A DNA stretch of 64,000 bases, from contig CAWAUM010000011.1 of NCBI GenBank assembly GCA_963785235.1, forward strand, positions 233,724 through 297,723, written 5' to 3'. The translations under genes were made by a program, and so were the position numbers. The notes under the pieces are model-generated. The model had not been told where the DNA came from and ran no database searches. It saw only the letters and a list, made by a program, of their open reading frames with translations. This document shows positions 34,285 through 64,000 of this stretch, piece after piece; position 1 is the first letter of the stretch; every line of letters starts with the position of its first letter. This stretch comes from an uncultured delta proteobacterium. GTDB lineage: Bacteria > Desulfobacterota > Desulfomonilia > UBA1062.

Positions 34285-34293
34285 TCTTCTCTC

Positions 34294-45699: not shown

Positions 45700-45773
45700 A
45701 TTTGTGAGTGTAGAGGATAAACCTCTCCACTTACTATGTTCTCGGAATTACGATTTGGTTTCTTTAGGATATT

Positions 45774-46442: not shown

Positions 46443-47643
46443 GCTTGGACATGAGGTCGTAAACCGGACCGATAAGGGAAATGACGATGAAGACGAAGAT
46501 GCCGCCCGTTATGACTATGGCAATGGGCTCAATCATCTTGCCCAAGATGTCTACAAAACGCGATGTCTTCAATTCGTAGGTATCTGCAAGATATTTCAGC
46601 CTCTGATCCAGGGTACCGGTCTTCTCGCCCACGCTGACCATCTTCAACGTGATGGCATCAAAGAATTTCGTTACAGTGAAGGCCGTCAGCAACGAATTGC
46701 CCATGTTGGTTTCATTACGTATACGTATGATGACCGAGCGGATGAGGTCGTTGTGAAAGACCTTTTCAAGGATATCAAGCGCTTTTGTAAGTGTCACGCC
46801 GGACTGAAGCATGAGGGACATATTCGAGAATACCAGGGTAAGGGTTGAGCATTTCAGCAGATCGCCCACCACGGGAAGACTGAAGGCAACACGGCTCAGC
46901 ATCAATCGTGTTCTAGGAATTTTTCCCAGAATGACAAACCCTATGGTAATCAATCCGAGTGCAATGGGGTATAGCAACCAGTTATCTTTGGAGAATTGGA
47001 CGAAATTGACAAGGCTCAACGTGATATTGGGGAGCTGGACATTGATCTCCTTGAAGGTTGAAACAAGGCGGGGCAGCACGAAAAAGAGCCAGAAGATGAT
47101 GACGCACAGCATGGCAGCCACCACGAAGCCCGGATAGATCAGCGCCCTCTTCACCTGGGAAACAATACTGTCCACCTTTTTTAAATAATTCGCGGTATTG
47201 TCCAGGGCTGTTTGAATGGTACCGGTCTCTTCTCCGATATGGCAGAAAAATATGAGCATCTCGGGAAACACCTCGGGCCGGCGTGAAAATGCCCCTGATA
47301 AAGACTCTCCCTGGGCAATGCCCCCGATGACCTCATCGATTGCATCTCGCAGGCGTTTTACCCTGATGGTTTCCTTGATGCTTTCCATGGATTCCAGTAG
47401 GGGCAGGCCGCTGCCGAGCATGGAGGCAAGGGATTCACAGAATTCCGCTATCTCGATCTTCTTAACTGCCGGCTGGGTAAGGGTCTTGATGGTTTCAATT
47501 ATCTGATACCTCTGTTCGCTGTAACGGATAAGCGTCATTTCCTGAGAGGAAAGGTTCTCCATCAGATCCCGGATGCCCTCGAAATCGCCCTTGGAGGCAA
47601 AGATTGTTCCGTCTTTCTTCAGGGCATTGTACGAAAGGATCAT
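46429..47643 (-). CDS. Type IV filament platform protein (GspF/PilC/MshG family)
   Basis: 404 aa with two T2SSF repeats and three TM segments. ATGA-type overlap with the ATPase gene. Confidence 0.85.
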   Translation of the reverse strand: MILSYNALKKDGTIFASKGDFEGIRDLMENLSSQEMTLIRYSEQRYQIIETIKTLTQPAVKKIEIAEFCESLASMLGSGLPLLESMESIKETIRVKRLRDAIDEVIGGIAQGESLSGAFSRRPEVFPEMLIFFCHIGEETGTIQTALDNTANYLKKVDSIVSQVKRALIYPGFVVAAMLCVIIFWLFFVLPRLVSTFKEINVQLPNITLSLVNFVQFSKDNWLLYPIALGLITIGFVILGKIPRTRLMLSRVAFSLPVVGDLLKCSTLTLVFSNMSLMLQSGVTLTKALDILEKVFHNDLIRSVIIRIRNETNMGNSLLTAFTVTKFFDAITLKMVSVGEKTGTLDQRLKYLADTYELKTSRFVDILGKMIEPIAIVITGGIFVFIVISLIGPVYDLMSKLGGG

Positions 47644-49277
47644 TACCGCAAAACCCTCCAGATCTCTGCGAAGCTTGTCGTACCGTTAAGTATCTTGCGG
47701 ATGCCGTCACCCCGGAGCGTTACCATGCCTTCTTCCACAGCCTTGTCTTTGATCTCGAAGGGGTGTGACCCCACAGAGATGAGGCGCTCGATCTCTTTGG
47801 ATATAACCAGGATTTCCGCCACCATGATCCGGCCCAGGTAGCCGGTCTTTATGCACCTGGGGCATCCTACCGGGGCATACAGGGTTGTCCCTTTCTGGAT
47901 GCCGAATACACGGTGCTCTTCGTCGCCTGAATCATATGGCTGCTTGCAGCTCGGACAGAGTGCCCGGACGAGCCGCTGCGCTATGACGCAGATGAGTGAT
48001 GATGATATCATATAGTCCCTCATGCCAAGGTCTTTGAGCCTGGGTACGGCTCCGGAGGCATCGTTGGCATGCACCGTGGAAAGGACAAGGTGCCCTGTCT
48101 GCGCAGCGCGGAGCGCCATGGTCGCCGTATCGCCGTCCCGTATCTCACCGATAAGGATGACATCAGGGTCCTGCCGTAAAAAGGCCCTGACCGCGCTTGA
48201 GAAGATATACCCGGACTTCTCGTTAACCTGGGTCTGGCGGATCAGCGGGAACTGGTACTCAATGGGGTCTTCAACGGTCACGATATTTTTTTCAATGGAG
48301 CTGATCTCCCGCAAGGCCGCATATAAGGTTGTAGTTTTTCCTGACCCTGTGGGGCCGGAGACTAAGACCATGCCGTAGGGCTTGTGCAGAAGATCCCTGA
48401 GCTGGGTAATATCATCAGGATCCAGGCCAAGGCTCCGGATGTTATACAACTCCTCCGAGGAAGCCAGGATGCGCATGACCATGTTTTCCCCATTGGTAAC
48501 CTTTAAGGTAGAGACACGGATGTCATAGTGCTCATTTAAAAAATCAAAGGAGAGCCTTCCATCCTGGGGTTTGCGCTGTTCCGAGATGTCCATCTCGGCC
48601 TTTACCTTGATGCTGGAGATAACCCTGGAGTGCACCTCGATGGGAAAGGAGTAAAACGGGTAGAGTATGCCGTCGATGCGGTAGTGGATCTGTGTTGTCT
48701 TGTTCGTGGGGGTTACGTGGATGTCCGTTGCACGGGAGTTGATGGCGGACATGATCAGCAGCCTCACCAGTTTTTCTGTATCCACGTCGTGCGGATTATA
48801 CTTGGAATGTTCGAGCTGCTGCTCGATCTCTTCTTCTATGGGGTGTTCCAGGAGGTAATAGTCTTTTTCAATGTGCTTCTGTATCTGCGATGGCGATGCA
48901 GCCACAAACCGGATGCGTTTTTTCGAGATGCGTGAGGCAAGGTCTGACAGTTTCGTATTATCCGGTTCGCTCGTGGCTATGGTCAAGGTAGTGTCCTCGA
49001 CACTTATGGGAAGCAGGGAGTTCTCGCGTGCAAATTGCACGGGTAAAGCAGAGAGCGCTTCTTTCTGTGGTGAGAAATGACGCAGCTCTACAAACTCGAT
49101 GCTGAACTGTTTTGCAATGGACTGGGCAAGTTCCGTCTGGGTGACAAGGCCAAGACGGATCAGGATATCGCCGACCCGTTCCTTGGTGGCACGCTGTTCT
49201 ATAAGGGCAAGGCCGATTTCCTTATCGCTGATGATCCCTTCATCTTTGAGAAGATCACCAATGCGTTTTTTCTCCAT
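47643..49277 (-). CDS. Type IV filament extension ATPase (GspE/PilB/MshE family) with N-terminal MshEN c-di-GMP-binding domain
   Basis: 544 aa. Walker A GPTGSGKTTT, Asp box DPDVILIGEIRD, His box TGHLVLSTVHAND, and a tetra-Cys CPSC...CPRC motif. N-terminal tandem 24-residue RxGxx(L/I)...Q motifs separated by 5 residues. Confidence 0.9.
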   Translation of the reverse strand: MEKKRIGDLLKDEGIISDKEIGLALIEQRATKERVGDILIRLGLVTQTELAQSIAKQFSIEFVELRHFSPQKEALSALPVQFARENSLLPISVEDTTLTIATSEPDNTKLSDLASRISKKRIRFVAASPSQIQKHIEKDYYLLEHPIEEEIEQQLEHSKYNPHDVDTEKLVRLLIMSAINSRATDIHVTPTNKTTQIHYRIDGILYPFYSFPIEVHSRVISSIKVKAEMDISEQRKPQDGRLSFDFLNEHYDIRVSTLKVTNGENMVMRILASSEELYNIRSLGLDPDDITQLRDLLHKPYGMVLVSGPTGSGKTTTLYAALREISSIEKNIVTVEDPIEYQFPLIRQTQVNEKSGYIFSSAVRAFLRQDPDVILIGEIRDGDTATMALRAAQTGHLVLSTVHANDASGAVPRLKDLGMRDYMISSSLICVIAQRLVRALCPSCKQPYDSGDEEHRVFGIQKGTTLYAPVGCPRCIKTGYLGRIMVAEILVISKEIERLISVGSHPFEIKDKAVEEGMVTLRGDGIRKILNGTTSFAEIWRVLR

Positions 49278-49466
49278 AAGACCCGTTCCCGCTCCTTAAG
49301 CAGTGCAAATTGAGAAATCACTCAAAGATATGTCCCTGCAAGAATCTCCTGTTGGAGAGTAGCCTTTCGGGTTTGTCTTCCACCTTCCTATCACGAGTGG
49401 GTGCATGATGTGTCATGCCCCAAACAACGCACGTGTGGGCCGGAAGACACCATCCTCGTGATACGG

Positions 49467-50060
49467 CTACATTCTCCAGTAGACAGTCTTAACCGTTGTT
49501 GCCGTATAAACAGTGTTGGCCCTCATGGTCCCTGTGTTGTAAACCGCGTCATCATATTTTCTGTCCATTTCCTGGGCAACCTCATAGGGGATCTGGGTGT
49601 ACACGATACAGTTCGCGTTCAGCGGTGTTGCAGACCCTGGGGGAGTAGCCAAATACTGGATGTAGGCCTGGCCTCCAAAGGGGTTTGTAGGGTAATCGTT
49701 AGCCGCTCCGGTATAGCCCCCGTTGATGATCTGTGCCAAGACGAGGTCCTGGAAGAGAACAGAGCGCTCGGTATTCGCATTGATCTGGCCGTTTCCTGCA
49801 GTCGCAGCAGGATCTGTATGGCCCTGTGTCGGGATATTAGCTACAGGTGCATCACCCGGATAATAGTTATACCTGTCATAATAGGTATAGAAGGCCGCGG
49901 TGAGTGAATCCTTCTGGTTGACTAACTTCTTGACCTTTGCATTCTGAATGAGGGCCTCGCCCTTGAGTACGCCTGTAATGAGCAAGCCGATGATCACCAA
50001 CACCAGTGCAAGTTCAACAAGGGTAAAGCCGCCTTTTTGTCGATTTCTAAACCGTTCCAT
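49467..50060 (-). CDS. Prepilin-type major pilin candidate
   Basis: 197 aa. MERFRNRQKG/FTLVELALVLVIIGLLITG (short leader, Glu+5). It is its own transcription-unit-like gene, followed by a long hairpin and a 189-nt gap before the ATPase gene. Confidence 0.8.
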   Translation of the reverse strand: MERFRNRQKGGFTLVELALVLVIIGLLITGVLKGEALIQNAKVKKLVNQKDSLTAAFYTYYDRYNYYPGDAPVANIPTQGHTDPAATAGNGQINANTERSVLFQDLVLAQIINGGYTGAANDYPTNPFGGQAYIQYLATPPGSATPLNANCIVYTQIPYEVAQEMDRKYDDAVYNTGTMRANTVYTATTVKTVYWRM

Positions 50061-50180
50061 GCATACACCTCCTGATAGAGTAGCGCCTAGCTGTAAGCTC
50101 TAGTAAGCACCCAATCGGTATAATCCACATTCTTCTTTAGTAATTGCTCGATATGGCTTGAATTATGGAAAGGGAAGAGC

Positions 50181-52331
50181 TTATTCTTTATGCGTAATGA
50201 TTCGTCTCCCAAGTGTCAGGGGGGATATGCCCGGTATAGTGGAGATGTCCTTGTTATATACAGCTCCTGTTGAAGATATGAATTTCATGACACCATTGTC
50301 CAGATCAATGGAAGGACCAAAAGCGCTGCCCATAAACATGGCCTCTGACTTTGTTTGCCTTCCAGTGAGGGAATCATACTCTTGAAACATGGATATGCCG
50401 GTGTCAATACCTCCGCAGGGAGAATCTTCTTTCCAGGTGCTTAAGAATAACCTGTTATCCATGATTGTCATGCCTGAGGGTGAGCCTCCTTCAAGGGAGA
50501 CAGACCAAACGATATTCTCTTTGGTATAGCATTCAAGGCGTTTATTACTTGCCACGATGAGGTGAAGCTCCTTTCGCCAATGGAACGGACGTATCTCCAT
50601 AATGGGATTATTGGCGGTGGTGTTTATGATGCCCAAGAGTTCGAGCCTGTTGTTAAAAAGATAGACAAGTCCGTCGGATGTCCCTGCAAAAACCCCAGCT
50701 GTGCACGGATCATAGCGCACGACATTAATGGTATGATTAACTTCGAATTGAGCCGTCCCTATGCCGTTTCCAAGATTGTACGCATATATCGTGGAGCCGT
50801 TACTGATATAGGCCATGGATTCGGATGCGTCGATAAAAGACCCTTTATGCTGCCAGATTATCTGAGGTCCCTGGCCTATACACGAAATGATGCCCAGTCT
50901 GTTCGGGCCTGTTATGACCCGTTCGCCTCTCAGTCGCACCTCGCCCCCTATACCTGTCATGAGCCACGTCAGGCTGCCTTCGGGCATGGTGACATTGAGG
51001 AGCTGATCGCGGGATGTAGTGCAGTACAGGTCTGTCTGTGTGGCTGCAAGGTCATGGGCAAGGCCATTCAGGGAATAACCCGGGCAGGATACCAGGCTTA
51101 AAGGACTGACGACACTCGGTCTGTAAAACCGGCATTTGTCGGTTTTGAGCCATGGCGGATCGAGCCGTGCACGGAGGTTTTTCAGTATCATGTCCTGGTC
51201 GTTACGAACCACTATAGGCTGGGTAACCAGCATCTGTTCAGGAACGAGTATCTCCCGTGCCGGCATATACTGACCCCCGCCCTTTATAGCAACACTTCTC
51301 AGATACGCCGTATCAGGGCCGATAATGTGGACATTGATGCCCAGAGACTTCGCATAGGATGAGACATCATCAAGGCAGTGAGAGCCTTCCCCTTCAAAGG
51401 CAGCATCTTTGGCGTTTCCATCATGATCAAAGTCCTTCAGCCAGGAGGGGAGATGGCCGTCGTTTATGGGAACACCTGCAGTAACCAGAATGATATGTTT
51501 GCCGGATACACACTGCGAAGGGAACAGGGTTGTTGCATTATAAAGTGCCTCCGATAAAGGGGCTGAGCCCGATGCCGGATGAACGCCGTCAAGGCCCTGA
51601 AGGATCTGCTGCCATTCAATGGTAAAAGTTTGGATCAGGCCTTGTGACGTGCTCATAAGGGACACTTCACACAGATCCAGTGATTCAAAGAGCGACTTTG
51701 CGTAGGAGAAGGACTTTGTCCACACTGACATTGCACCTGTCAGGCTGCCGAGTGCCGGGGCCCTTTGATATGAGTTGCCCCAGCTTCCCTTGAAATAGGT
51801 GCCCTCAGCGTTCGTGTAGGTGTCTTCAAACTCACAGATATCACTGATGTGGGTTATGCCGCCTGTGGCCCATTTTGAGTAGAGCGCATCGTCTAAGAAA
51901 TCTTGGCCGGATGATGTAATCGTGCTTAATGAATCATCGATGATAATTATGATATGTGGTCTCTGGGCAATCCGGGTGGTGCCTTGTGGGATATCCGCAC
52001 TCTGTTCCCTTAGTGCCACACACCAGGAATATGACTGCATGGCGCTGGTTGCATGTTCGGTGAGCCTGGTGGAAAAACATATATGGTCCCACCCTTCAGG
52101 CGCCACAAGCAGTTTATGGGTTGCGGATGGCATAGTCCCGTTTTGGGGAGCAAAGAGCTGATCTTTAATAATACGATAGAAGGCGTTGCTCGATTTCATA
52201 TGGTACAAGGTTATGGAAGCGGACGCCATGGTAAGCCCCAGGATCACGGTAAGGAGTAGGAGTACAAAGGCAAGGATAAAACCTTGCTCATTGGATGGGG
52301 GATGATAAAGAGAGTTCCTTCTCTGTTCCAT
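50181..52331 (-). CDS. PilY1-like candidate tip adhesin: PilX_N-type anchor + vWA domain + beta-propeller
   Basis: 716 aa. N-terminus EQGFILAFVLLLLTVILGL (PilX_N-like hydrophobic helix). vWA beta-1 with DxSxS (HIIIIIDDSLS), HIILVTAG, INVHIIGP. The C-terminal roughly 300 aa holds PQQ-like propeller repeats (STIYAYNLGNG, GLVYLFNN). Confidence 0.6.
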   Translation of the reverse strand: MEQRRNSLYHPPSNEQGFILAFVLLLLTVILGLTMASASITLYHMKSSNAFYRIIKDQLFAPQNGTMPSATHKLLVAPEGWDHICFSTRLTEHATSAMQSYSWCVALREQSADIPQGTTRIAQRPHIIIIIDDSLSTITSSGQDFLDDALYSKWATGGITHISDICEFEDTYTNAEGTYFKGSWGNSYQRAPALGSLTGAMSVWTKSFSYAKSLFESLDLCEVSLMSTSQGLIQTFTIEWQQILQGLDGVHPASGSAPLSEALYNATTLFPSQCVSGKHIILVTAGVPINDGHLPSWLKDFDHDGNAKDAAFEGEGSHCLDDVSSYAKSLGINVHIIGPDTAYLRSVAIKGGGQYMPAREILVPEQMLVTQPIVVRNDQDMILKNLRARLDPPWLKTDKCRFYRPSVVSPLSLVSCPGYSLNGLAHDLAATQTDLYCTTSRDQLLNVTMPEGSLTWLMTGIGGEVRLRGERVITGPNRLGIISCIGQGPQIIWQHKGSFIDASESMAYISNGSTIYAYNLGNGIGTAQFEVNHTINVVRYDPCTAGVFAGTSDGLVYLFNNRLELLGIINTTANNPIMEIRPFHWRKELHLIVASNKRLECYTKENIVWSVSLEGGSPSGMTIMDNRLFLSTWKEDSPCGGIDTGISMFQEYDSLTGRQTKSEAMFMGSAFGPSIDLDNGVMKFISSTGAVYNKDISTIPGISPLTLGRRIITHKE

Positions 52332-52980
52332 GGTATCTTGACCTCATGCGAATTGTCAGATCATTGCCTGAAATCGTTGGATGAAAGAGGACTACTGCCT
52401 CTGCAAGCAGTTGGTTGTTCCGGTAGAGGCCGTCTCCCTTCAGTTCATAGTGGATAGCCGGGACCGCCCTGTTGCCTTGTACAGGCATTATGGCGCATGT
52501 CAGAGGGAGGGTTTTTTTATCCAGGCCCCGTGAATAGTTGTGGCCTACAACACAGGGGCCGTTCTCGGTTATTATTCCAAGGTCGGCCCAGAAGTCTGCG
52601 CGGCCGTCATTGTCGATATCTACGGTATCGAGTATTGCAACCCTTTCAGCTGAGGAATTGATGAGTGCATAGTAAGGTGCCGGATTGGTCAAGGATATGC
52701 TGATACCGGGATTTTCAGATGTGACAGGCACCCCTGCAATAAAAAGCTGGCTGCCTTCAATCGCAATCTTAAGGTCCTGCGGGAGCAATAATGCACACTG
52801 AACGAGATCTGCATTCAGCTGGATAGAGGCCTGGCGGAGCGACTGCATGCAATACCATGCCTCTCTCATTTCTTTATGCGTAACAGCCGAAACCTGGTAG
52901 AATTGATAGAGAGCGAGAAAAAGTATTGATGAGCATGCAAGCGCTATAAGCAACTCCACCATGCCCACACCTCTTTCCAT
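52288..52980 (-). CDS. Minor pilin, PilW-like prepilin-type protein
   Basis: 230 aa. MERG/VGMVELLIALACSSILFLAL (Glu+5). First gene of the cluster, overlapping the next gene by 44 nt. Confidence 0.65.
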   Translation of the reverse strand: MERGVGMVELLIALACSSILFLALYQFYQVSAVTHKEMREAWYCMQSLRQASIQLNADLVQCALLLPQDLKIAIEGSQLFIAGVPVTSENPGISISLTNPAPYYALINSSAERVAILDTVDIDNDGRADFWADLGIITENGPCVVGHNYSRGLDKKTLPLTCAIMPVQGNRAVPAIHYELKGDGLYRNNQLLAEAVVLFHPTISGNDLTIRMRSRYHGTEKELSLSSPIQ

Positions 52981-53200
52981 TGTATGCCCCTTCCACTATA
53001 AAATATACTTATATGAAAGGAGGGATAATTCTTGGGAATAGAGATTAAACAAGAGAGAGCAGCAAGCTCAACAACAATACAATAAATACAGTTTAATATA
53101 ATACTATGAACCCGGTGCTTGTCAAGGGATGAAAGTACGCCTTAGGAAAATGACAATGGACAACCTTAAGAGATATTGATAATAATCGCACCAAAACAAG

Positions 53201-54855
53201 ATGGAGCGCATGCAGAGCAGGGGAAATATACTTATCGCGGTTATTGTGGTGATCGCCATTGCCATGACCCTGTTCCTGATTGTACCCCTTGGCGGTAAGG
53301 TGGGGCAGCTCAGGGAAGCCACCATCTCGTTCATCTTCCGGAAGCCCCCGCAGTTCACCTCCATGGAGGTCGATGTGGAGGGGGCCCGCAAGGTGGTAAG
53401 AGCGGGTGAGTCACTCAAGATCAAGGGTGGTGAGACCATCATCATCACCAAGGTCCATGCAAATACGTTCTTCGATTCATACCTGTCTGCTGATGTTGTA
53501 GGCTTCAGTAAACCAAACGACATGAATGAACCCATCGATACGGTGGAGATCCGCAATCAGCTCATAGCCGCCGGCATCAAATCGGTCCCCATTGATATTT
53601 TCTACCTCGACCGGAAGATCGCCAAGGTCCCCCTTGAGTTGGATCTGAATGAGCAGGACTTTATCAATCAGATAAGATCAGCCAAGAGTGATGAGGAAAA
53701 GATCTCCCTTTTGCGCTCCGCACATGCAACATTTCCGAAGAATATGTCCTTTCTGGATGAGCTTGATAAGCTCTTGAGTGCTAAAGAAGATTACCAGGCA
53801 CTGGTGGGGATCTATAAGGGGGTTGTGGAAGCCGATCCTGCGAATTTGGCGGCATACTTGAATCTCTCAGCATATTACATAAAGCTGAAGAACTACGATG
53901 AGGCCCTTGCCATGTGCCGGAAAATTATCGATGCGGGCAAGGCGGATGCGGTCATTTACCGCCGCATGGCCTATATCGCAGGCGAAAAGGGTGATCTTGA
54001 AAACCGTGTTGTATACCTGAAAAAGGCCCTTGAACTTGATAAACAAAACGAAGCCGTGGTTGTCGACCTGGCCAAGACCTATGAACAGGCAGGCATGAAA
54101 CAGCAGGCCCTTGATGTGTACCAGTCTGCTTCGGATATTGCCAAGGACAGGGATATCCTTATCCCTCTGATTCAAAATGCGATGAAAAAAGAAGATTATA
54201 AAAAGGCGCTCGATCTTCTGAAGCGCTACATTCAGCGCTACCCCAATGATAAGAATGCCACTTGCTCAGCTTGCCATGGTCATGGGCAAGCTGGGTGATA
54301 CAAAGGCGCAGGTTATATATTACCAGAAGGCGGCTGAACTTTCGCCTTCAGACAGCGTGATCTGGTATAACCTCGGTGTTGCCCGCGAAAAACTCGGCGA
54401 TAACAAGGGCGCCCTTGACGCCTATGACAAAGGTGCTCCAGATGAAGCAGGCAGATATGGATTCCATGCAGGCTGCGGCAGGCCTGTCTTTGAAACTGGG
54501 CCAGTACAAGGATGCATACGCGTATTATTCATCCCTGGCGAAAAAGACATCCAAGAAGGAACACCTTAAGGGACTTGTGAGCGCCGCTGTCGGATTGAAG
54601 GACCAGGACAAGGTTATCGAGGCCGGTACCTTGTTCCTCAAGAACAACAAGGACCATGACGTGGCCATGGCACTCGGGTATGCCTATGAGTCCAGGGCTT
54701 CTACACGTGAGCCCCGGGCAAAGCTGGATGACCTGAATAAGGCCTTGGAGGCATATCAGACAGCCCGTAAGGTCAATCCCGCATCCAGGATTGCAGGCGA
54801 GAAGATACCCGAGCTTAAGATTGAGATCCTTAAGCTCAGGAAGGCAAGGCAGTAA
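53201..54855 (+). CDS. Membrane-anchored TPR-repeat protein (two frame interruptions near 54255 and 54430)
   Basis: N-terminal TM helix (ILIAVIVVIAIAMTLFLIV), a roughly 130-aa unknown domain, then many TPR units continuing through track ORFs 53201-54298, 54246-54569 and 54376-54855. Divergent from the pilus cluster, in a position analogous to MshN/PilF-type TPR proteins. Confidence 0.65.
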
Positions 54856-54863
54856 GGCCGCGT

Positions 54864-55553
54864 GTGTATATGAGCCCTGGGAGTCAAACACACGTCATGG
54901 ATAGGACGTTTGCCATCGGAGACATCCATGGATGTCTCGATAAACTCGAAGACCTCATAAAGCTCATCGATCCTGGCCCGAAGGACAGCCTGATTTTTCT
55001 GGGTGATTACGTCGACCGGGGCGAATCCGCCTCAGAGGTGATCGATTACCTTATAGATCTTGCGCGCAGGGTGCCCTGTGTTTTTTTGCGGGGCAACCAT
55101 GAGGATATGTTTATCACCTTCTTGGAGTTCGGCTCGAATAAGACGATCTTTTTTGCCAATGGCGGCCTTAAGACCATCGAGTCCTACATCAAGCCCGAAC
55201 GTTTTACCGGCAATGACCAGGTGGCCCGAAGGTTGCCCGAGGCACATAGAGATTTTCTCTCAAATCTCAAGCTGTATCATGAGGATGACGGGTATATTTA
55301 TGTGCATGCAGGCATCAAGCCCGGCAATCCCATGATAGAGCAGGACAGGTATGACCTTCTCTGGATCAGGGACGAGTTCATCTTTTCGCCCACCGGCATG
55401 GAGAAGAAGGTGATCTTCGGGCATACACCCTTTGCCAGGCCCATGGTGAAACCGGATAAGATCGGGATAGATACCGGGGCGGTCTATGGCGGGGTTCTCA
55501 CGGCCATAGAGATCCCGGGCGAAACATTCATCCAGTCCTTCAGGCAGGCATAG
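54864..55553 (+). CDS. PPP-family metallophosphoesterase (PrpE/ApaH-like Ser/Thr phosphatase)
   Basis: Motifs GDIHG, GDYVDRG and GNHE. The likely start is MDRTFAIGDIHG, slightly inside the track ORF. Confidence 0.8.
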   Translation: MYMSPGSQTHVMDRTFAIGDIHGCLDKLEDLIKLIDPGPKDSLIFLGDYVDRGESASEVIDYLIDLARRVPCVFLRGNHEDMFITFLEFGSNKTIFFANGGLKTIESYIKPERFTGNDQVARRLPEAHRDFLSNLKLYHEDDGYIYVHAGIKPGNPMIEQDRYDLLWIRDEFIFSPTGMEKKVIFGHTPFARPMVKPDKIGIDTGAVYGGVLTAIEIPGETFIQSFRQA

Positions 55554-55577
55554 GCCTTATAAACGAGAATAACAGCC

Positions 55578-56237
55578 ATGTCCAAGGATTATTACCGGAT
55601 TCTGGAAATATCCAAGGATGCAACGTCTTTAGAGATCAAGAAGACCTACCGCAGGCTCGCCCTTCAATATCACCCTGATCGTAACCCCGATAGACCCGGC
55701 CTATAGAGCATTTCAAGGAGATCACCGAGGCATACGGGGTGCTTATCGACCCGGACAAGCGGCGGAAATATGACATGCAGCGTGAGATTCTCCTTCAACC
55801 GGGAGACGGTGTTCGAAGATATCTTATCCAAATCAGAGTTCCGGGACGTCTTCGATGATCTGCCCATACGAAAAGAATGGATTGACCGCATATTGAACGT
55901 GAGCAAGGTCTTTGCCTATGAGGCCTTTGTGGTGGGAGGCACGCCCAGTGCAATCCTGAGGCGGTCCATGGTGCGCCTGGCATCGCAGGGATTGAACAGG
56001 ATGTTCCATGCAGTCATGGACATGCACGAAAAGGTTGCCATCCCTTCAAGCATTGCCGTGCTCGGGGGATACATAACCCTGGAGTACAGGCCGGGCTTTG
56101 TGAAACACAAGATCCGTGTGAAAATACCCAGGAACACGCAGCAAGGCACAATGCTCAGGGTCCTGGGGATGGGCAGGTCAAGCCCGTCAAGAAAGGCAGG
56201 GGACCTCTATTTGCAGGTGGACATCGAATCGTTGTAA
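55578..56237 (+). CDS. J-domain (DnaJ/CbpA-like) protein (two frame interruptions near 55700 and 55790)
   Basis: ATG at 55578. [38 protein letters not shown], then [21 protein letters not shown] in a second frame. The C-terminal fragment (track ORF 55770-56237) ends [10 protein letters not shown], like the DnaJ C-terminal domain. Confidence 0.7.
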
Positions 56238-57151
56238 ATGACGATCTGGTTCTTGCCGTGCGTCTTGCCCCAGTACATGGCCGCATCCGCCATTTTGATG
56301 ACCTCGTGCGGATCGCTGGAATCCTTCGGCAGGCTGGAAAGGCCTATGGTGACGCTGACCTCAAGCGTTGATTCAACCGTGCTGCAGATACGCTCTGACA
56401 CCACCACGGCCTCTTCAATGGAGGTTTCGGGGAAGAGGATAATGAACTCCTCGCCGCCATAACGGGCAAGGATGTCGCAGTTTCTCGTGTTATGCTTGAA
56501 CACATGGGACAGGCGCACGAGCATTTCGTTGCCCTATTCATGCCCTTTGGCGTCGTTGTACTTCTTGAAATCGTCGATATCGATCATGGCCAGAGACATT
56601 GTCCTGTTGTACCGCAGGTGTCTCGAAACCTCGTTCTTGAGTACGCTCATGAGGTGCCGGAAATTGTACATGCCCGTGAGTTCGTCGGTGCGGGAGAGGT
56701 TCCGGTAGTAGTCAGCCAGTTCGGCCTCCTCTTTGAGCCTGACCTCTTCGAGGATCCTTTGGATGGTGAGGTGGAGGTGGTCGAGCAGAATCGGTTTGGT
56801 AATAAAATCCGAGGCGCCGAGCTTCATGCATTCCACTGCATCACGAATGGTGCCGTACCCGGTAATCATGACAGCCTGGATATCGGACCTGATCTTTTTG
56901 ATGGATTTCAATAACTCCGAACCTGTCATGCCCGGCAGGTGAAGATCCACAATGGCTATATGAAAGAGGTCTTTCTGGACGAATGCAATTGCCTGCTCCC
57001 CACTCATGGCGGTTGTTACATCAAAATCGTGCCCTAAAAGATACTCTTCAATAAGATCAAGGGTCTCCTGTTCATCATCCACAATCAGGACCCGAGTTGT
57101 TTTCTTCACAAGCGTGGCACCCATCGTATCAGCCGTTCTCCTTGTCCTCAC
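56207..57151 (-). CDS. Response regulator-diguanylate cyclase (REC-GGDEF) with an in-frame TAG at 56534-56536
   Basis: REC domain (IAIVDLHLPGMTG). GGDEF domain split as ...YNDAKGHE-TAG-GNEMLVRLSHV...RYGGEEFIILF. Both halves are in the same frame (track ORFs 56534-57151 and 56207-56524). Confidence 0.8.
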
Positions 57152-57348
57152 ATAATAATTCCATGAAGAGAACTTACAACTATCTTCATACTAACGGATA
57201 ATTGTCTACAATTCATGAGAGTTATTTTCGTTTACCGTCAGGGGGTGCTAGTATTAGCGAAATAATTTCAAGTAGGTGTCTCATGAGCTTTTATGTATAA
57301 CAGAATTCCCTCTAAAGATATTTTAAAAAAAGTCCGTTAAAGGGTGGG

Positions 57349-58156
57349 ATGCAACAGGCTTGTCTTATCAAGAAGATTGAACAGCATATTGAGAGTATTC
57401 CGACGCTTGAGTCCAGCCGGATGAGGCTCTTTAATGTGCTCCAGGAGGAAGAATCCTCCATAGAGGGTATTGAGCAGGTAATATCCAGTGATCCTGCCCT
57501 TGTAGCCAAAGTGATCAAGCTGGCGAATTCGTCGTTCTACCGTCATGCCGACAGGCATGTGGGAATCCAGCAGGCATTACGCACCATCGGTCTTGACATG
57601 GTGAAATGCATCGCATTGTCCATGGCCGTGATGGAGACCTTCGGCACCCAGACCCCTTCAATGAAGCAGCTCTGGAGGCATTCCTATGCAGTGGCTTATA
57701 TATCAGGACTGCTCGGGAATTCCAAAGCCGAGAAGGAGTGTCTCTTCACCGGGGGGCTTCTCCATGATATCGGCAGGATGATACTGATCTGCAGAGACAC
57801 CTGAACACTATCTTCCCCTTTGCGAATTCACCGGTAGCTGGCCCGATCTGGCATTAGAGCGCGATGTTTTCTCCATGGACCACACAATAATCGGCGAAAT
57901 GATCGCGAAGCGCTGGCATTTTCCGCCGGAAGTCATAGCGCTGATAAGGTATCATCATGAACCAATGAGCCGAGCAACCGCCCTTGTTTATCTGACGGAT
58001 CAGGTCGTCATGCAGCATGAGAGGGGTTTGATCACAGAAGATTTTGAGCAGGAGGTCGGAATCAGAAACCATCTTGGTGATGAGTATAAAGATCTTGTAA
58101 ATACTATTAGACAAAGGTATAGAACGAACACGGTTATATTTGAAAATTTGGGGTAA
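57349..58156 (+). CDS. HDOD-domain signalling protein (frame interrupted near 57800)
   Basis: IESIPTLESSRMRLFNVLQEE..IEQVISSDPALVAKVIKLANSSFY, then GGLLHDIGRM. Continues as EHYLPLCEF..DHTIIGEMIAKRWHFP in a second frame. Confidence 0.75.
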
Positions 58157-58164
58157 GGGGCATT

Positions 58165-60292
58165 GTGTTTGCCGTGAAGGAGCTGCATATTCTACGGGGC
58201 GAATCCACAGAGCTTACCTCGACTCGTGAAGCGATCCTGCTTGATCTCCTCAGCAAGGCCTCTGATTTCTATGAACAAACGGTAGGGGTACTTTCTTCCA
58301 TCTTCGAGATCACCGAATTCGTCTCTAAAGGCTCTCCGGAGAGCGATTTTTTCGCTTATGTAACAGGCGTGCTCATCGAGGAGTCAAGGTGTGAAAACGC
58401 CTCAATCTTCATGGTGGAGAACGGCATGGTAGTACTCAAGGCCGCTTCCGGTATAACAATAAACAATGCCAATCCTCATGTGAGCATGGCACTCGGAGAG
58501 GGTGTTGCCGGAACCTGTGCACAAGATGGAAAGACCATCTTAGTTCATGATGTACAAGACTGTGAATTTTTCAAAAAGATGGATTCCGCCAAGGTAACCA
58601 TTGGTTCCATGCTGTGCGTGCCCATTAAGGAAGGAAACCGGACGCTCGGCGTCATGAACCTGTCCCACTCATGCAAGGGCTTATTTCAATGTCCATTATG
58701 TCCGGGTGTTTGAGCTCATGGGCCTGCTCATCGGCCAGATGCTTACCCTGGTGCAGCTCTATGAAGTCTTCCATCGGAAAAATTCAGATTTGACTGAACT
58801 CTTAAGCGAAAGAGACGAATCTTTACGAAGCGTTACCGAGAGGTATAAGGCGGTTGTCGATATTTCCGAGGAGATGATATTCATTATCGACATGGCAGGC
58901 CGTGTCCTGTTTCTCAACAGGGCCCTGCAGTTACTCCTGACAAGGCCGCCAGTGACCATTTCGGATATCTTCGATGAGAGGTGCGTTTCCTTGATCCTTG
59001 AAACCGTTTCTCAGGCAGATACCGGACATTCCACCGAGTTTGATCTCAATGTGAAGGTGGGAGATAAGGCCGATGTCATCGCTCAGTTCTTTGTCAAGCA
59101 TATCGATACCGACCAGATTCTCGTAATTATGCGTGACATCACTGCCAAGAAGCGCATGGAGCAGAAGACCATGCAGACAGAGAAGCTCACCTCGCTCGGG
59201 CTTCTTACCTCCGGGATAGCCCATGAGCTCAACAACAAGCTCACGCCTATCCTGGGATTTGCCGACCTCATGGACCCGGATCATCTGACCCCTCAGGACA
59301 AAAAGAGGCTTTCCATCATCATCAACTCGGCCTCGGCCGCCAAGGGCATTGTGGAATCCCTGCTCAAGTTTTCCCGGAACAAACCCCCGGAGAAGAACAT
59401 CTTCGACATGCGTGATGTTATCAAGAGGACTATGAACCTCTATAGCCCCATCATCAAGAAGCGCGGTATAGAAATCATCAACGAGGATCCTGAAGAGCCG
59501 CTGTACATTAAGGCAGACATGAATTGCATGGAGCAGGTGCTCGTGAACTTCATCAACAATTCCATCGATGCCATTGATGAGCACCCCGGCACCATCTGGA
59601 TCAGGTCGTTCATCAATGATGAATTTGTAAATGTCACTATTGAGGATACTGGTCCAGGCATTGCTGAAGGCGTCAAGACAAAGATATTTGATCCGTTTTT
59701 CACCACCAAGCCGAAGGACAAGGGAACAGGACTCGGGCTTTCCATATGCTACGGGATCATTTCCGACCACAAGGGCGAGGTGTTCATTGAAAATACAAGC
59801 AATGGCGCCATGGCGACCATGAAGATCCCTGCCATCATGGATATGGACGCCAAAGACAGGGATGCTGTCATAGATGATGAGCCCGCCTGCACGCCCTCTG
59901 ACAGCCGGAAGAGGCAGAGCCTGATCATGGTGGTGGAGGACGAGGCGGATCTCCTTGACCTCATGGTGGACACCTTGAGCCCGCACTACAAGGTCATCAC
60001 CTTCGAGAACGGCAGGAAGGCCTGTGATAACATCGAAGAGTATGCCTGGGAACTCATCATATCCGACCTGAGGATGCCGGTGATGAACGGCATGGAATTC
60101 TACCACGAGGCGATAAAGAAGAACCCGGGTTTAAAAAAGAGGTTCTTGTTCATTACCGGTGATACCTATGACTTCCAGGTTAAGGAATTTCTTGAGACCA
60201 CCGGTGTAACATTCCTGAGGAAGCCTTTCAGGATCAAGGAGTTGAGGGAATCCGTGCACAAGCACCTGCAATTGAGGATGATTAAGGAATGA
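58165..60292 (+). CDS. Hybrid sensor histidine kinase GAF-PAS-HisKA-HATPase-REC (frame interrupted near 58690)
   Basis: GAF domain (GEGVAGTCAQDGKTILVHDV), H-box SGIAHELNNKLTPILGF, N-box NFINNSIDAI, G-boxes EDTGPGI and GTGLGLS. C-terminal REC (LIISDLRMPVMNG). Confidence 0.85.
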
Positions 60293-60963
60293 GTATTAAG
60301 AGGATACTCGTTGTGGACGATGAAGAGATCGTCCGTTATTCACTGAAAAATATCCTTACAACCAATGGGTTTGAGGTGGATGAAGTAGGCTCTGCCGAGG
60401 AAGCGCTCAAACTCCTCTATACCAAGAGCTTTCATCTGGTGCTCACCGACCTTGTGCTGGAAGGCATGGGCGGGCTTGAGTTGCTGGAGAACATCAAGGT
60501 TATATCGCCCAGGACACTGGTGATCGTGATTACGGGCTATGGTTCCCTGAAGACCGCTGTGGCTGCCCTGAGGCTCGGGGTGTACGACTATCTCCTCAAG
60601 CCCTGTGACGAAAATGAACTCGTTTTGAGGGTGCGCAGGGCGCTTGAGATGCAGGGTTACGGCACGGAACAGAAAAAACTCCATGAATTAAGCGCCATTG
60701 CCAAGACCGCGGTGACACTCTCGGACAAGATCAATACCCCGCTCAACATCATCCTGGGCAACATCGAGATGCTCGAGCTCAGCCCGGAGCTTGAGAGGAA
60801 CACCAAGATACAAGAGACACTTCATGTCATGGAAACGCAGATATTCACCATCAAGAAGGTAATGGATAAGCTGGCCAGCCTCACGAACGCCGATACCAAA
60901 AGATACCCGGCTTTAAGGGATTATGAGATTATTGATTTGACAAGCGAGGGGGCCAATGATTAG
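60289..60963 (+). CDS. Response regulator receiver fused to a DHp/HisKA-like domain lacking the phospho-accepting His and any ATPase domain
   Basis: REC (LVLTDLVLEGMGG, KP). Residues around 125-200 align to a HisKA H-box, but as SDKINTPLNIILGNIEML (Asp146 where His is expected). ATGA overlap with the upstream kinase. Confidence 0.7.
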   Translation: MSIKRILVVDDEEIVRYSLKNILTTNGFEVDEVGSAEEALKLLYTKSFHLVLTDLVLEGMGGLELLENIKVISPRTLVIVITGYGSLKTAVAALRLGVYDYLLKPCDENELVLRVRRALEMQGYGTEQKKLHELSAIAKTAVTLSDKINTPLNIILGNIEMLELSPELERNTKIQETLHVMETQIFTIKKVMDKLASLTNADTKRYPALRDYEIIDLTSEGAND

Positions 60964-61435
60964 TTCAAAGCAGATCCTGATCGTTGATGATTCCCATGAC
61001 CTGACCCATGTGATAGCGGATTTCCTGGGCATGTACGGATACCAGGTTCATACGGCGCACAATGGGTACGATGCCTTGGAATGTATGCACTCGCAGCATA
61101 TCCAGGTCGTGGTGAGCGACATCCATATGCCTCGCATGGATGGATTCACGCTGATGGGAGAGATCAAGGCAAAGTACCCCGAGGTGCCCATTGTCCTGAT
61201 TACGGGATTTTCCGTTAGCGAGGCCCAGAAAATGGCCTTTGACCATGGGGCTAATGCCTTTGTTGCAAAGCCCTTCAAACTCAAGGAGCTCAAGAGTGTG
61301 ATAGAATCGGTTTCACAAGAAGATATACACAACAGCATTGAGGAGGTAGATAATGAAGAAGACGACCAAGGTGAAGAAACCCCAGAAGGTTCTCTGCTAC
61401 ATCGATTATGCAAAGTACAGCGCCTTTATTGTTGA
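60956..61435 (+). CDS. Single-domain response regulator (CheY-like) with acidic tail
   Basis: ILIVDDSHD, VVVSDIHMPRMDG and KPF motifs. The 3' end overlaps the well-supported USP start by 83 nt, so the true stop may be misplaced by an indel. Confidence 0.75.
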   Translation: MISSKQILIVDDSHDLTHVIADFLGMYGYQVHTAHNGYDALECMHSQHIQVVVSDIHMPRMDGFTLMGEIKAKYPEVPIVLITGFSVSEAQKMAFDHGANAFVAKPFKLKELKSVIESVSQEDIHNSIEEVDNEEDDQGEETPEGSLLHRLCKVQRLYC

Positions 61436-61813
61436 TTATGCATACCAGCTCTCTTGCCTTATTGATGCAGAGCTCTTTGTCCTTCATACCGTCACCGACA
61501 TCAAGAATGCTGCGGGTTTTTATGTCCCCCACATCAATACCGACAAGCTTGAAGAGGAAGTAATAAGGCAGCCAAAGACAAGATGTATTCCATCTGCAGC
61601 CAGGTGGGTGATGATGTGATCGATGCGAAGCACAGGCTTGTCATGAGGGGAATTCCCATCGATGTGATCAATAAGGTGATCAAGGACAAGGCAATTGAGC
61701 TGCTCATTATCGGCCATGAGGTCAGCAAGGGTGCCCTTGCCGGGTTCAGGAGCGATTATGCGGAGAAGTTCATGAAGAACCCGTCGATTCCTTTCCTGGT
61801 CTTGCCGGTTTAA
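61353..61813 (+). CDS. Universal stress protein family (frame interrupted near 61570)
   Basis: GGAGG lies 6 nt upstream of the ATG. KVLCYIDYAKYS..AELFVLHTV, then GDDVIDAKHRLVMRGIPIDVINKVIKDKAIELLIIGHE in a second frame. Confidence 0.7.
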
Positions 61814-61943
61814 TAAGGCTTATGGATGACATGATCCCAACTGTAGCCTGAGGCGGGATCTTTCCTTTTACGGACATCATCAAGTGGCGCCTGGTTTGAA
61901 CAAGAACCCCAGGGACTGCTCCGGGGTATAAAAGACAAGGCCT

Positions 61944-62715
61944 TTATCTTCTCTTAGCATCAGGATACGGGCACCCATGTGCATTTTTCATCCAGGGCGG
62001 GATGAGGGCAGCCTTAGCCCCCATCAGTGAAGGGTTATACCTGTGCTGCAGGATGGAGACCATGAGTTCATAGGTGTCCATTTTATCAATATCCCCGATA
62101 AAAACCCTCATGAAAGGACTCTTCAAGCGATGCCCTCCACTGACGCTCCAGGGGAAGGCCTTTTATGATTTCAATGGTCCCCGGAGCTGCTTCCTGGCGG
62201 AATAGAACTCAATTGCGTCCCCCCTGCCCGAGAAGTCGATACCGGCAGGGATGCATGCAGACAGGCTATCTGAACTCGCCAATGAACATGGAAGCTCGGT
62301 TGCCTTGATGGCTTCCGGCAGGAGGAACAGCTCAGGGGAGTTTCTCATGCTCGTGCCCATATAGTATGCATAGATCGACAGCGCGATGATGAAGATGCCG
62401 AAAAAGAAACGCAGGGGTTCCTTGTCTGGTTTCTTATTTAGAACCATTTGGGATGGATGGGTTTGTTGGAGAAAGTTTCCTTTTGTGTGCGTGTCGTAGT
62501 CATGCCCTATAGGGGGCTCTTCGAGGTATTCGTGCATGCGTTCTTCAGGCATGGGCCTCCCGGTCCTGTTCAGGCGGCCTGTCTGCATCCTTGCCGGCAG
62601 CCGTGTACTGCCCGAGGCGTTTCAGCAGCGCGGGAAGAACCAGGAAGAGGAGGAGGAGAATGATAGGCAGGAGTGAGTTAATGTCAATGGCAAAGGAGTT
62701 TCTTTCCATAATCAT
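61944..62715 (-). CDS. Hypothetical membrane protein(s); three fragments that may be one gene
   Basis: A 56-aa ORF at 62545-62715 ([33 protein letters not shown] helix). Then 62163-62588 (second TM helix FFFGIFIIALSIYAYYM). Then 61944-62126, in the same frame as the second fragment after an in-frame TAA at 62163-62165. No recognisable motif. Confidence 0.3.
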
Positions 62716-63352
62716 ATGATAATAACATAACGATCAAGTGAGTAAACACAAAAAATTTATCGTAGTACCTGGTCAGTCTCATGGAAGTTATGATCTGAGT
62801 CCAGAGTTCATCCATGCCGTCACCCTTGGCGGCAGAGGTTATAACCGGAGACAGCCCGCACTGCTTTGAAGCTCGGATGCACGCTTGAGCCGCTGGCCGT
62901 AGCTCAGCTTGTCGGTCTTGGTGGCAACGAGTACGACCTTGGCCGGGCTTTTCGCCATGAGTTCAATGAGCATACGCTCCTCATCCTTCAAGGTCCCTGC
63001 GTATGTCCACAAGCAGCATGACGAGCTTCAGTTCGTTGTTGTTCGAGAGATATGTGGCAATCAGCTCGTCCCAGTTCTGGCTTATGGTCCTTGGATACCT
63101 TGGCATAGCCATAGCCCGGCAGGTCCACCAGATAGATGGAGGGCTGGTCCACCAGGTCCACCCGGAAGAAGTTGACGGCCCTGGGTCTTGCCCGGCATCT
63201 TGCTTGTTTTTACCAGGGATTTGCGGTTCACCAGCGTGTTGATGAGCGAGGACTTGCCCACATTCGATCTGCCTGCAAAGGCGAACTGGGGAAGCCCGGC
63301 GCTTGATGGGGAAAGGGCCCGGCAAAGGTGCGTCGCGTATTTTCACCTTCAT
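62684..63352 (-). CDS. engB: Ribosome biogenesis GTPase EngB/YsxC (at least four frame interruptions)
   Basis: Pieces in different frames: [33 protein letters not shown] (G1), [14 protein letters not shown] (G3), [40 protein letters not shown] (G4), [12 protein letters not shown]. The ATG overlaps the aminotransferase stop (ATGA). Confidence 0.7.
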
Positions 63353-64000
63353 AGGCTTTTCAGATAGGAGGCCACCCGGGACACCCCCTCCACGATGTTT
63401 TTCTCCGAGTTGGCGTAGGAGAACCGGATATACCCTTCAGCCCCGGGCCCGAAATCGATGCCCGGGGTAACACCCACGCCCGTGTGCTCCAGGATATCCA
63501 TGGCAAACAGGCAGGGAGTCGGTGCAAAGATCGCCCATGTTCACCAGGACATAAAAGGCGCCGGTGGGCTCCACCTCCACGTTGAACCCGTGCCGGGACA
63601 TCTCGGCGAGCATGACCTTTCTCCGGCCGGCAAAGGTCTGACTGCATGTCCTCCACATCCGCACCCGCCTCGGTGAGTGCCGCGACCCCTCCCCACTGGG
63701 CGATGGAGGGCGCGCAGATCATGAGGTTCTGCTGGATCTTCTGGGCGGTACGGATCAGTGACGGGGGGAAGACGGCCCATCCCAGCCTCCAGCCGGTCAT
63801 GGCATAGGCCTTGGAGAAGCCGTTGATGACGATGGCATTGTCCGTGAATTCAAGGATGGTGTGCTGCTCGGATTCATAGACCAGCCCGTGGTAGATCTCG
63901 TCGGAGATAATGGGGATGCCGAGGTTGCCAAGGCCTTCAGGTGCTCCGTGTCCAGGCAGACGCCCGTGGGGTTTGCCGGCGAGTTGATGAGCAGGGTTTT
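63349..64000 (-). CDS. Class I/II (aspartate-type) aminotransferase, C-terminal part; gene runs off the window end; at least three frame interruptions
   Basis: Pieces: NGFSKAYAMTGWRLGW (PLP-Lys region), [86 protein letters not shown]-stop. Confidence 0.75.

Follow-up and report, generated by a model that had tools for sequence, protein, structure and literature searches.

The stretch of DNA analysed here, hereafter referred to as the window, comprises 64,000 nucleotides of an uncultured delta proteobacterium (contig CAWAUM010000011.1 of GenBank assembly GCA_963785235.1, positions 233,724 to 297,723 of the forward strand), and includes a compact island of six signalling genes. One of these encodes REC1-DHp(Asp), a receiver protein whose C-terminal domain resembles the helical core of a histidine kinase with an aspartate in place of the phosphorylatable histidine. 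According to the listing of open reading frames (ORFs) and the Pfam annotation, all six genes named in a previous sequence-only reading of this DNA, from the REC-GGDEF protein to the USP, were found; sizes after repair refer to the correction of small indels in the window sequence.

56207-57151, minus strand: REC-GGDEF diguanylate cyclase (Pfam Response_reg and GGDEF; intact orthologues of 305-320 amino acids)
57349-58156, plus strand: HDOD protein, first gene of the plus-strand operon (Pfam HDOD; orthologues of 259-268 amino acids)
58165-60292, plus strand: hybrid histidine kinase (Pfam GAF, PAS, HisKA, HATPase_c and Response_reg; NCBIfam)
60289-60963, plus strand: REC1-DHp(Asp) (Pfam Response_reg and a sub-threshold HisKA match)
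60956-61349, plus strand: REC2, a stand-alone receiver of 131 amino acids after repair (Pfam Response_reg)
61353-61813, plus strand: USP, 153 amino acids after repair (PF00582 recorded for intact orthologues)

Our results indicate that the island contains a genuine operon for two-component signalling, which is kept across 46 species-level genomes of Desulfomonilia. The close linkage previously described among the plus-strand genes was read again in the sequence: the kinase and REC1-DHp(Asp) genes overlap at 60289-60292 (ATGA), and the REC2 ATG at 60956 initiates an 8-base overlap (60956-60963) with the REC1-DHp(Asp) gene, which ends in a TAG at 60961-60963. The unrepaired REC2 ORF continues to 61435, and the repaired one stops at 61347-61349, three bases ahead of the USP ATG at 61353. 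The HDOD assignment is well supported in the first fragment of this gene (PF08668, E = 3.7e-34, 118 bits, above cut-off), and the USP match is weak in the window fragments. The kinase displays the features of a hybrid kinase, namely a HisKA domain with its His (H-box AHELNN, His codon 59222-59224), a HATPase_c domain and a C-terminal receiver with all phospho-acceptor residues (motif SDLRMP, Asp codon 60065-60067); its intact orthologues have 702-708 amino acids (708 in loci L001 and L005), and it matches the NCBIfam models of LvrA and LvrB below their cut-offs. An assignment of its receiver to the Rec_inter or Rec_term type by the FATGUY/FxSGY motif was tried and set aside, as the corresponding FITGDTY is not a clear match; the meaning of this motif is unresolved according to the source study itself (PMC9981736). 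This protein is the one true kinase of the island, and it is encoded together with four phosphorylatable receivers: its own, REC1, REC2 (Asp55, codon 61118-61120) and that of the REC-GGDEF protein. In agreement with the sequence-only reading, none of the four has a DNA-binding domain in the Pfam and NCBIfam annotation.

The most unusual member of the operon is REC1-DHp(Asp). Across an alignment of 15 orthologues, its receiver residues D10, D11, D54, T82 and K104 do not vary, and receiver and linker match NtrC1. The H-box reads TLSD(K/R)INTPL, in which Asp146 (codon 60724-60726) aligns with the His of the adjacent kinase (AHELNN); Asp146 and Thr150, the latter at position +4 from that of the His, are also invariant in the orthologues. 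No conserved His was found in the C-terminal half of the protein in either the orthologue or the family alignments, so that the description of this DHp-like domain as His-less holds. The HisKA profile (PF00512) scores 24.1 bits for the window protein, against a cut-off of 26.9, and many of its orthologues have a precomputed PF00512 match. In Pfam, the protein, which ends 79 residues past the H-box, gave no HATPase_c match, nor an HPt match (PF01627) at E <= 0.01, and NCBIfam contains no model for the dead DHp domain. In an AlphaFold model of the C-terminal part, with a predicted local distance difference test score (pLDDT) of 79.5, a helical hairpin is followed by a small beta hairpin, and histidine-kinase chains occupy each of the first 19 places among its Foldseek matches, with weak E-values; in a profile search of the PDB, the closest solved relative of the DHp family is LvrB (E = 3.9e-8). 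The full-length AlphaFold model, for which 15 close orthologues were used, was poor (pLDDT 60.9); it places residues 108-164 in a continuous helix, and its Foldseek matches were uninformative, being mostly receivers with root-mean-square deviations mostly above 10 Å. Judged by these features, REC1-DHp(Asp) appears to carry a histidine-kinase helical core minus the ATPase domain, with Asp in place of the phospho-His.

These properties can be compared to those of the Lvr pathway of pathogenic Leptospira (PMC13269768; PDB 8vc9), which has the same order of hybrid kinase, REC-helix-DHp protein and receiver-bearing partner; a DNA-binding regulator is absent in both. The N-terminal phosphorylatable REC, long signalling helix and DHp domain that define the Rec-HK (LvrB-type) kinases were found in REC1-DHp(Asp), and the autokinase core of such kinases was not, there being neither His nor CA domain. 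Thus, in contrast to LvrB (REC-helix-DHp-CA), the window protein has no CA domain, Asp for His161 and no acidic residue at +1, and can neither autophosphorylate nor pass phosphate on. In addition, the downstream partner is a bare receiver here, whereas in Lvr it is an anti-sigma factor. In the explanation that we favour, REC1-DHp(Asp) descends from an LvrB-type receiver-controlled kinase.

In order to assess conservation, loci were scanned using one genome per species, which gave 80 loci, 46 of them in a Desulfomonilia-like clade, and synteny was counted only over clade loci whose contig extends far enough (informative loci). REC2 lies directly 3' of REC1-DHp(Asp) in all 42 of these, the hybrid kinase is directly 5' in 40 of 41 (the exception, L007, has a gapped copy), HDOD precedes the kinase in 37 of 38, and USP follows REC2 in 34 of 40. 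The recurrence of this gene order in 46 species-level genomes argues that the island genes are real, and the counts, together with the exceptions given below for the upstream genes, indicate that the selected unit consists of HDOD, kinase, REC1-DHp(Asp), REC2 and usually USP.

Further support for genuine genes was obtained from L001, a 204-kb metagenome contig that encodes an identical REC-DHp protein and aligns to the window with 96.9% identity over 13.7 kb (window 50290-63996); the homologues carry names of Desulfomonilia / Thermodesulfobacteriota metagenome-assembled genomes (MAGs). The mismatches between both sequences occur mainly at third codon positions, a bias that denotes real divergence under purifying selection and therefore genuine genes rather than chance ORFs. 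The same alignment contains 32 one- or two-base indels, approximately one per 430 bases, housekeeping genes included, and the TPR, metallophosphatase, DnaJ-like, GTPase and aminotransferase genes are also split by window indels. Four indels interrupt genes inside the island coding sequence: an extra C at 58680 (kinase), two missing bases after 61327 (REC2) and one missing base near 61566 (USP) are confined to the window, and an extra G at 57796 (HDOD) is common to the window and L001 and is not present in L007, L008 or any other relative. L001 alone has a fifth indel in coding sequence, a T of the HDOD gene near 57899. Single repairs yield full-length ORFs of 268 (HDOD), 708 (kinase), 131 (REC2) and 153 (USP) amino acids, with lengths that agree with the intact genes of better assemblies; the sequence-only reading is thus corrected in that four of its genes are split by indels and that REC2 has 131 amino acids and not 159. 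The REC-GGDEF gene is not frameshifted. It bears an in-frame TAG at 56534-56536 (minus strand, inside the GGDEF domain) where the 98%-identical L001 reads TCG (Ser), and as this is a substitution and not an indel, it might be a real strain-specific cyclase knockout, in which case the window copy may be inactive in this strain.

Taken together, the window indels look like the noise of an unpolished long-read-type assembly rather than pseudogenisation; for the HDOD indel common to both sequences, and for the TAG at 56534-56536, a genuine origin is conceivable. The extra G at 57796 adjoins a CTGCAG site; this shared indel reflects either a pseudogene confined to the lineage or an error that base calling makes systematically at a methylation motif. 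If the stop codon and the frameshifts were all real, the island would be decaying in this strain and its cyclase, HDOD, kinase and USP genes would be pseudogenes, as might be expected from the interruption of five of the six island genes in the window and from a HDOD frameshift seen in two independent assemblies. We regard such decay as highly improbable: the indel density extends throughout the 13.7-kb comparison and into housekeeping genes, four of the five island coding indels are seen in one assembly only, substitutions fall where purifying selection would leave them, the genes are intact in every better assembly, and the CTGCAG beside the shared indel suggests a possible systematic error.

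The distribution of the dead DHp domain was explored by searching its C-terminal 107 residues against 1.84 billion cluster representatives. From the 52 matches, two (P0124 and P0136) were long repeat proteins and were discarded as spurious, leaving approximately 50 clusters; a broad family profile returned only 16 short proteins, and no family census was derived from it. The DHp(Asp) family is small and uncurated. None of the 50 representatives matches a CA profile, and in all 48 with a recognisable H-box the DHp domain is either C-terminal or followed by a REC domain. The domain ends in a conserved K.Y....M.DL tail, Y..(I/M)xDL in REC1-DHp(Asp), which, in our reading of a profile alignment to HK853, falls on the start of the CA domain; hence, the family resembles kinases cut off shortly after CA begins. 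Two types of H-box were recognised. The Asp-type, with 29 of the 48 clusters, has the pattern D-[KRQH]-[IV]-N-[TS(N)]-P-L, in which +1 is K, R, Q or H and in no case acidic (0/29), and +4 is Thr in 20, Ser in 8 and Asn in 1 (Thr/Ser 28/29). The His-type comprises the remaining 19, with the pattern H-E(Q)-[IV]-N-N(S)-P-L, Glu at +1 in 18 and Asn at +4 in 18. Positions 0, +1 and +4 therefore co-vary near-perfectly between both types. The His-type set (P0133, P0149, P0157, P0170 and 15 further clusters) has H-E-I-N-N-P-L as its H-box and likewise ends in the Y..MxDL tail, and several of its members carry an N-terminal REC; these proteins could be Spo0B-like phosphotransferases or phosphatases.

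In HisKA domains, the acidic residue at +1 is needed for kinase activity only, and Thr or Asn at +4 for phosphatase activity only (Willett & Kirby, PMC3510030). Having lost the His, the CA domain and the +1 acid and kept the +4 residue, the Asp-type proteins are without every kinase determinant and retain the phosphatase determinant. REC1-DHp(Asp), with Thr at +4, has the residue that phosphatase activity requires, and would be a candidate phosphatase. Moreover, the H-box is the most conserved segment of the family across phyla, which argues for a function at the receiver active site.

Outside the clade, the Asp-type DHp domain was found in four contexts, in genomes among whose titles are those of Calditrichaeota, KSB1 and Delongbacteria MAGs. 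The first consists of REC-DHp(Asp)-REC fusions of 360-408 amino acids (16 loci), directly followed by a REC-PAS-HisKA-HATPase gene in 15 of the 16, with a four-base overlap in L068. The second consists of REC-PAS-DHp(Asp) proteins of ~514 amino acids (8 loci), five of which have a 121-amino-acid REC gene and then a REC-PAS-kinase gene downstream, and a REC protein upstream; the sole upstream protein scanned, that of L063, is a REC-HATPase_c_2 protein resembling LvrC. The third context, a large GAF/PAS-DHp(Asp) protein (3 loci), is followed by two REC-only genes in two loci and has a GGDEF-REC protein upstream in two, and the fourth is formed by GAF-PAS-DHp(Asp) proteins at contig ends. The contigs of L070, L079, L081, L084 and L085, all with a GAF-PAS-DHp(Asp) gene, end within ~300 bases past it, which suggests a repeat or another assembly-breaking element downstream.

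The receivers of the fusions are informative on the partners of the window protein. Each of the two fused receivers has its best match in its window counterpart, REC1 or REC2 (97-127 bits, against <=85 for other receivers), indicating that the window genes for REC1-DHp(Asp) and REC2 encode, in split form, what is a single protein in the fusions. A function of REC2 in physical contact with the dead DHp domain is strongly supported by this relation, and the fusion loci support equally strongly a REC-bearing kinase as third partner; in the distant partner kinases the REC is N-terminal and serves as an input domain. Eight non-Desulfomonilia MAGs each have two Asp-type systems, a REC-DHp-REC fusion and a REC-PAS-DHp protein (locus pairs L054 and L063, L057 and L069, L068 and L072, L056 and L076, L066 and L071, L058 and L082, L074 and L083, L073 and L080). 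Directly upstream of distant fusions, a protein of ~215 amino acids was found whose N-terminal HisKA domain keeps its His (LLHELSNP) and which has no HATPase match; no homologue was found in the window and no relative in the PDB, and it could be a ChpT/Spo0B-style phosphotransferase. Its genes are:

8908-9558 of L068: ~215-amino-acid HisKA protein
8903-9556 of L056: ~215-amino-acid HisKA protein
7611-8249 of L077: ~215-amino-acid HisKA protein
8861-9571 of L078: ~215-amino-acid HisKA protein

The sequence-only reading had placed the island next to a pilus cluster with an MshEN ATPase, and had proposed that it may act through cyclic di-GMP (c-di-GMP). The cluster was recovered at 41823-52980, but it does not abut the island, as three genes (53201-56237) intervene:

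53201-56237, plus strand: TPR protein, metallophosphatase and DnaJ-like protein, a conserved upstream block, all three split by indels in the window
41823-52980, minus strand: type IV pilus or type II secretion system (T2SS)-like cluster (Pfam secretin, T2SSF platform protein and three N-methyl pseudopilins, plus unnamed genes)
47643-49277, minus strand: MshE-like T2SSE ATPase of the pilus cluster (MshEN domain, two c-di-GMP motifs)

The REC-GGDEF protein has the characteristics of PleD/WspR-like cyclases, with a GGEEF active site (RNCDILARYGGEEF motif), an RxxD inhibitory site that reads RNCD and precedes GGEEF by five residues, and a phosphorylatable REC, and differs from them in having a single receiver and the stop codon of the window. 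The MshEN consensus consists of two 24-residue RLGxx(L/V/I)(L/V/I)xxG(L/V/I)(L/V/I)... motifs, five residues apart (PMC11731258). The ATPase, a putative c-di-GMP receptor, has both: they span residues 5-28 and 34-57, and the five residues between them (RATKE) give the expected spacing. It departs from the consensus by one non-conservative deviation, a Lys at position 7 of motif I, apart from conservative Ile/Val for Leu. REC-GGDEF is upstream of the operon in 30 of 34 informative loci, accompanied by the TPR/metallophosphatase/DnaJ-like block in most relatives, and a pilus pseudopilin gene is upstream of the TPR gene in 23 of 25. REC-GGDEF and the pilus cluster are therefore common but not obligatory neighbours of the core. 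The pilus-cluster genes at 50181-52331 (716 amino acids) and 44263-45699 (478 amino acids), both on the minus strand, have no Pfam match; the 716-amino-acid protein is encoded beside the TPR gene in most relatives, with only 34-62% identity, near-identical contigs excepted. A second pilus gene set, pilM, pilN, pilO and pilP, is located at 522-3254 (minus strand), ~40 kb from the MshE-type cluster.

With the integration of these findings, we tentatively propose, at somewhat less than an even chance, that the operon encodes a branched His-Asp network acting on proteins and not on DNA, in which the kinase would feed the receivers directly and the dead DHp domain, gated by REC1, would dephosphorylate REC2. 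The kinase His would phosphorylate REC1, REC2 and probably the REC-GGDEF receiver, a direct transfer for which an HPt protein would not be needed. Phospho-REC1 would switch the coiled coil and the DHp dimer, as the LvrB receiver switches the LvrB core, and the DHp dimer would dock REC2 at the canonical DHp-receiver interface and dephosphorylate it via Thr150; alternatively, within the same proposal, the dead DHp may hold REC2 as DivL holds DivK. REC2 would serve as a gated phosphate sink or adaptor, tuning the flow of phosphate to the other receivers, and the likely enzymatic output in the clade would be c-di-GMP from REC-GGDEF, readable by the nearby MshEN-type pilus ATPase.

The lack of a phosphotransferase was one of the main arguments of the sequence-only reading, according to which a hybrid kinase needs an HPt protein, none is recognisable and the DHp-like domain would be the only candidate. 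The absence was corroborated, since no PF01627 match was found in the island or in the ~60 ORFs of the window. The candidate, on the other hand, has to be discarded: without a phosphorylatable His, DHp(Asp) cannot be the missing phosphotransferase, and it differs in this from Spo0B, ChpT and HPt, helical bundles that act between receivers in phosphorelays and all need such a residue. The requirement itself is not forced either, given the N-terminal REC of the distant partner kinases and the precedent of the Lvr pathway, in which the hybrid kinase LvrA activates LvrB by phosphorylating the LvrB receiver and LvrB then phosphorylates LvrC; an HPt protein is nowhere mentioned in that study (PMC13269768). 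The lost ATPase domain and the Asp for His in REC1-DHp(Asp) probably account for the absence of an HPt relay protein.

Several observations weigh against the proposed network. The HPt search covered 64 kb of this genome, and there are distant fusion loci with the His-keeping ~215-amino-acid HisKA protein upstream, systems that may run a real relay. Both facts would be accommodated by a classical multistep phosphorelay, in which the C-terminal REC of the kinase would pass phosphate through an HPt, ChpT-like or Spo0B-like protein encoded elsewhere to REC1, REC2 and REC-GGDEF, leaving the dead DHp as a side regulator; such a relay would make use of a kinase REC that possesses all phospho-acceptor residues, and the ~215-amino-acid protein suggests that CA-less phosphotransferases exist in related systems. 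We consider it unlikely, given the lack of an HPt match or of a homologue of that protein in the window, a tight 4-5-gene operon that is kept across 46 species and contains no such gene, and the use of the REC as an N-terminal input domain in the distant partner kinases.

Catalysis by the dead DHp is the second aspect on which doubts bear. DivL of Caulobacter, which retains the other kinase motifs, lacks phosphatase activity and has a stabilising effect on DivK~P (PMC4211667), from which it follows that a retained +4 residue is no proof of catalysis; in 8 of the 29 Asp-type clusters this residue is Ser, a phosphatase role being established for Thr and Asn; and the resemblance to the CheX ExxN and CheZ/NarX DxxxQ motifs is one of analogy only. 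The main rival explanation is a DivL-like sensor or scaffold, in which the dead DHp would bind REC2 or the kinase REC depending on phosphorylation state and without catalysis, and would sequester the receiver or signal allosterically, for instance to the kinase. DivL, itself His-less, docks DivK~P where receivers normally bind; binding is as compatible as catalysis with the REC-DHp(Asp)-REC fusions and the strict adjacency; and an acyl phosphate could be repelled or sensed by an Asp that occupies the position of the His. This explanation appears doubtful to us, although it merits serious attention: the change of +4 to Thr/Ser alongside the loss of the His and of the +1 acid looks like selection on a catalytic position, and DivL keeps its CA domain and has its His replaced by Tyr (Ala in one species), not by Asp.

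A third possibility is that a heterodimer forms between the dead DHp and that of the hybrid kinase, and that autophosphorylation is thereby blocked, as in RetS/GacS, REC1 controlling the pairing. DHp domains do dimerise, the RetS/GacS DHp co-complex is among the fold matches, and the dead DHp is always encoded beside a kinase. Such an anti-kinase heterodimer nevertheless seems very unlikely, as it would leave unexplained both the conserved fusion to REC2 and the fact that the H-box face, and not the dimer core, is most conserved; furthermore, the two DHp sequences differ at many helix 1 positions.

The proposed c-di-GMP output faces difficulties of its own, these being the stop codon of REC-GGDEF in the window and the incomplete linkage of REC-GGDEF and the pilus genes to the core. 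In L012 and L013, the TPR-to-GGDEF block is kept and housekeeping-type genes (functions read from N-terminal sequence, not scanned) replace the pilus cluster; in L033, L039, L046 and L048, 2-3 kb of housekeeping-type genes are inserted between REC-GGDEF and HDOD, and those of L033, L046 and L048 resemble, as read from their sequence, a dehydrogenase and a phosphofructokinase; and L042, L047, L050 and L051 have the core operon without upstream REC-GGDEF, TPR or pilus genes. The expected co-occurrence with the pilus cluster thus applies to 23 of 25 informative loci and fails in L012 and L013. Overall, the reading of REC-GGDEF c-di-GMP by the MshEN pilus ATPase would be plausible for most of the clade, on circumstantial grounds: the motifs of cyclase and ATPase that the sequence-only reading invoked are present, the link is broken in several species, and the window cyclase has a stop codon. 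What that reading had observed was confirmed, and its interpretation was supported only in part.

Beyond the USP gene, the following feature is convergent to the operon:

61944-62588, minus strand: convergent membrane protein of ~215-226 amino acids and no known family, split in the window and kept beside the operon in most relatives

In most relatives, this gene and a small gene (~83-112 amino acids) are convergent to the operon (e.g., L002:11509-12189), and the pair is present even where USP, REC-GGDEF and pilus genes are absent. Elsewhere in the window, a multi-PAS histidine kinase (771 amino acids) followed by a response regulator with REC and Sigma54_activat domains (14583-18196, plus strand) constitutes a PilS/PilR-like or NtrB/NtrC-like pair, and is the only DNA-linked two-component system of the window. 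The genes dnaA, rsmG, mnmE, jag, yidC and rnpA, located at 6123-7469 and 31698-36462 (minus strand), place the window in the origin-proximal part of the chromosome. The GC content is flat across the region, and a mobile or defence island was ruled out on the basis of this flat GC, the housekeeping neighbours near dnaA and the chromosomal synteny in 46 species. Promoter and terminator scans of 55500-62700 gave counts no higher than those of shuffled sequence, and are thus uninformative on operon structure.

In a wider context, many genomes contain hybrid kinases without an obvious HPt protein, as well as "incomplete" kinases with HisKA and no ATPase domain. In the 2018 census of archaeal signalling proteins, REC-PAS/GAF-HisKA regulators without ATPase were listed, none of them studied experimentally, and a phosphatase role was raised for the "HisKA, no HATPase" proteins (Galperin et al., PMC5847659). 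The present family shares with these a sensor or receiver input together with a HisKA-like domain, C-terminal and without ATPase; however, the archaeal proteins are described as His-keeping, whereas in 29 of 48 clusters here Asp takes that place and +1 and +4 have changed with it; the present family also has its conserved Y..MxDL tail, and its REC and kinase neighbours are fixed. With DivL (PMC4211667) it shares a His-less DHp domain turned from phosphodonor into binder of a single-domain receiver, and PAS inputs upstream, and differs from it in that DivL keeps CA, has Tyr and not Asp, has no fused receiver and was shown to be without phosphatase activity. The novelty thus resides in the Asp-type, a variant with defined partners that had not been described within the known "HisKA without ATPase" class.

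This locus assigns to a CA-less HisKA protein fixed partners, one kinase and one bare receiver, the latter fused to the DHp domain in other phyla, and it also illustrates that indel-rich long-read contigs can disguise a conserved operon as a set of pseudogenes. The residue pattern, with kinase-specific residues lost and phosphatase-specific ones kept, turns a vague category into a specific, cheaply testable one. It is possible, although we lean towards doubt, that the Asp-type CA-less DHp domains are a new class of input-gated aspartyl-phosphate phosphatases built on a kinase scaffold. If so, Asp for His and Thr/Ser for the +4 Asn would form a dedicated catalytic pair, like the acid/amide pairs of CheX and CheZ, and the module, which is joined to inputs of the REC, PAS or GAF type and often also to the receiver that would be its substrate, would provide partner kinases with a programmable sink for phosphate in Thermodesulfobacteriota, Calditrichota, KSB1, Delongbacteria and others.

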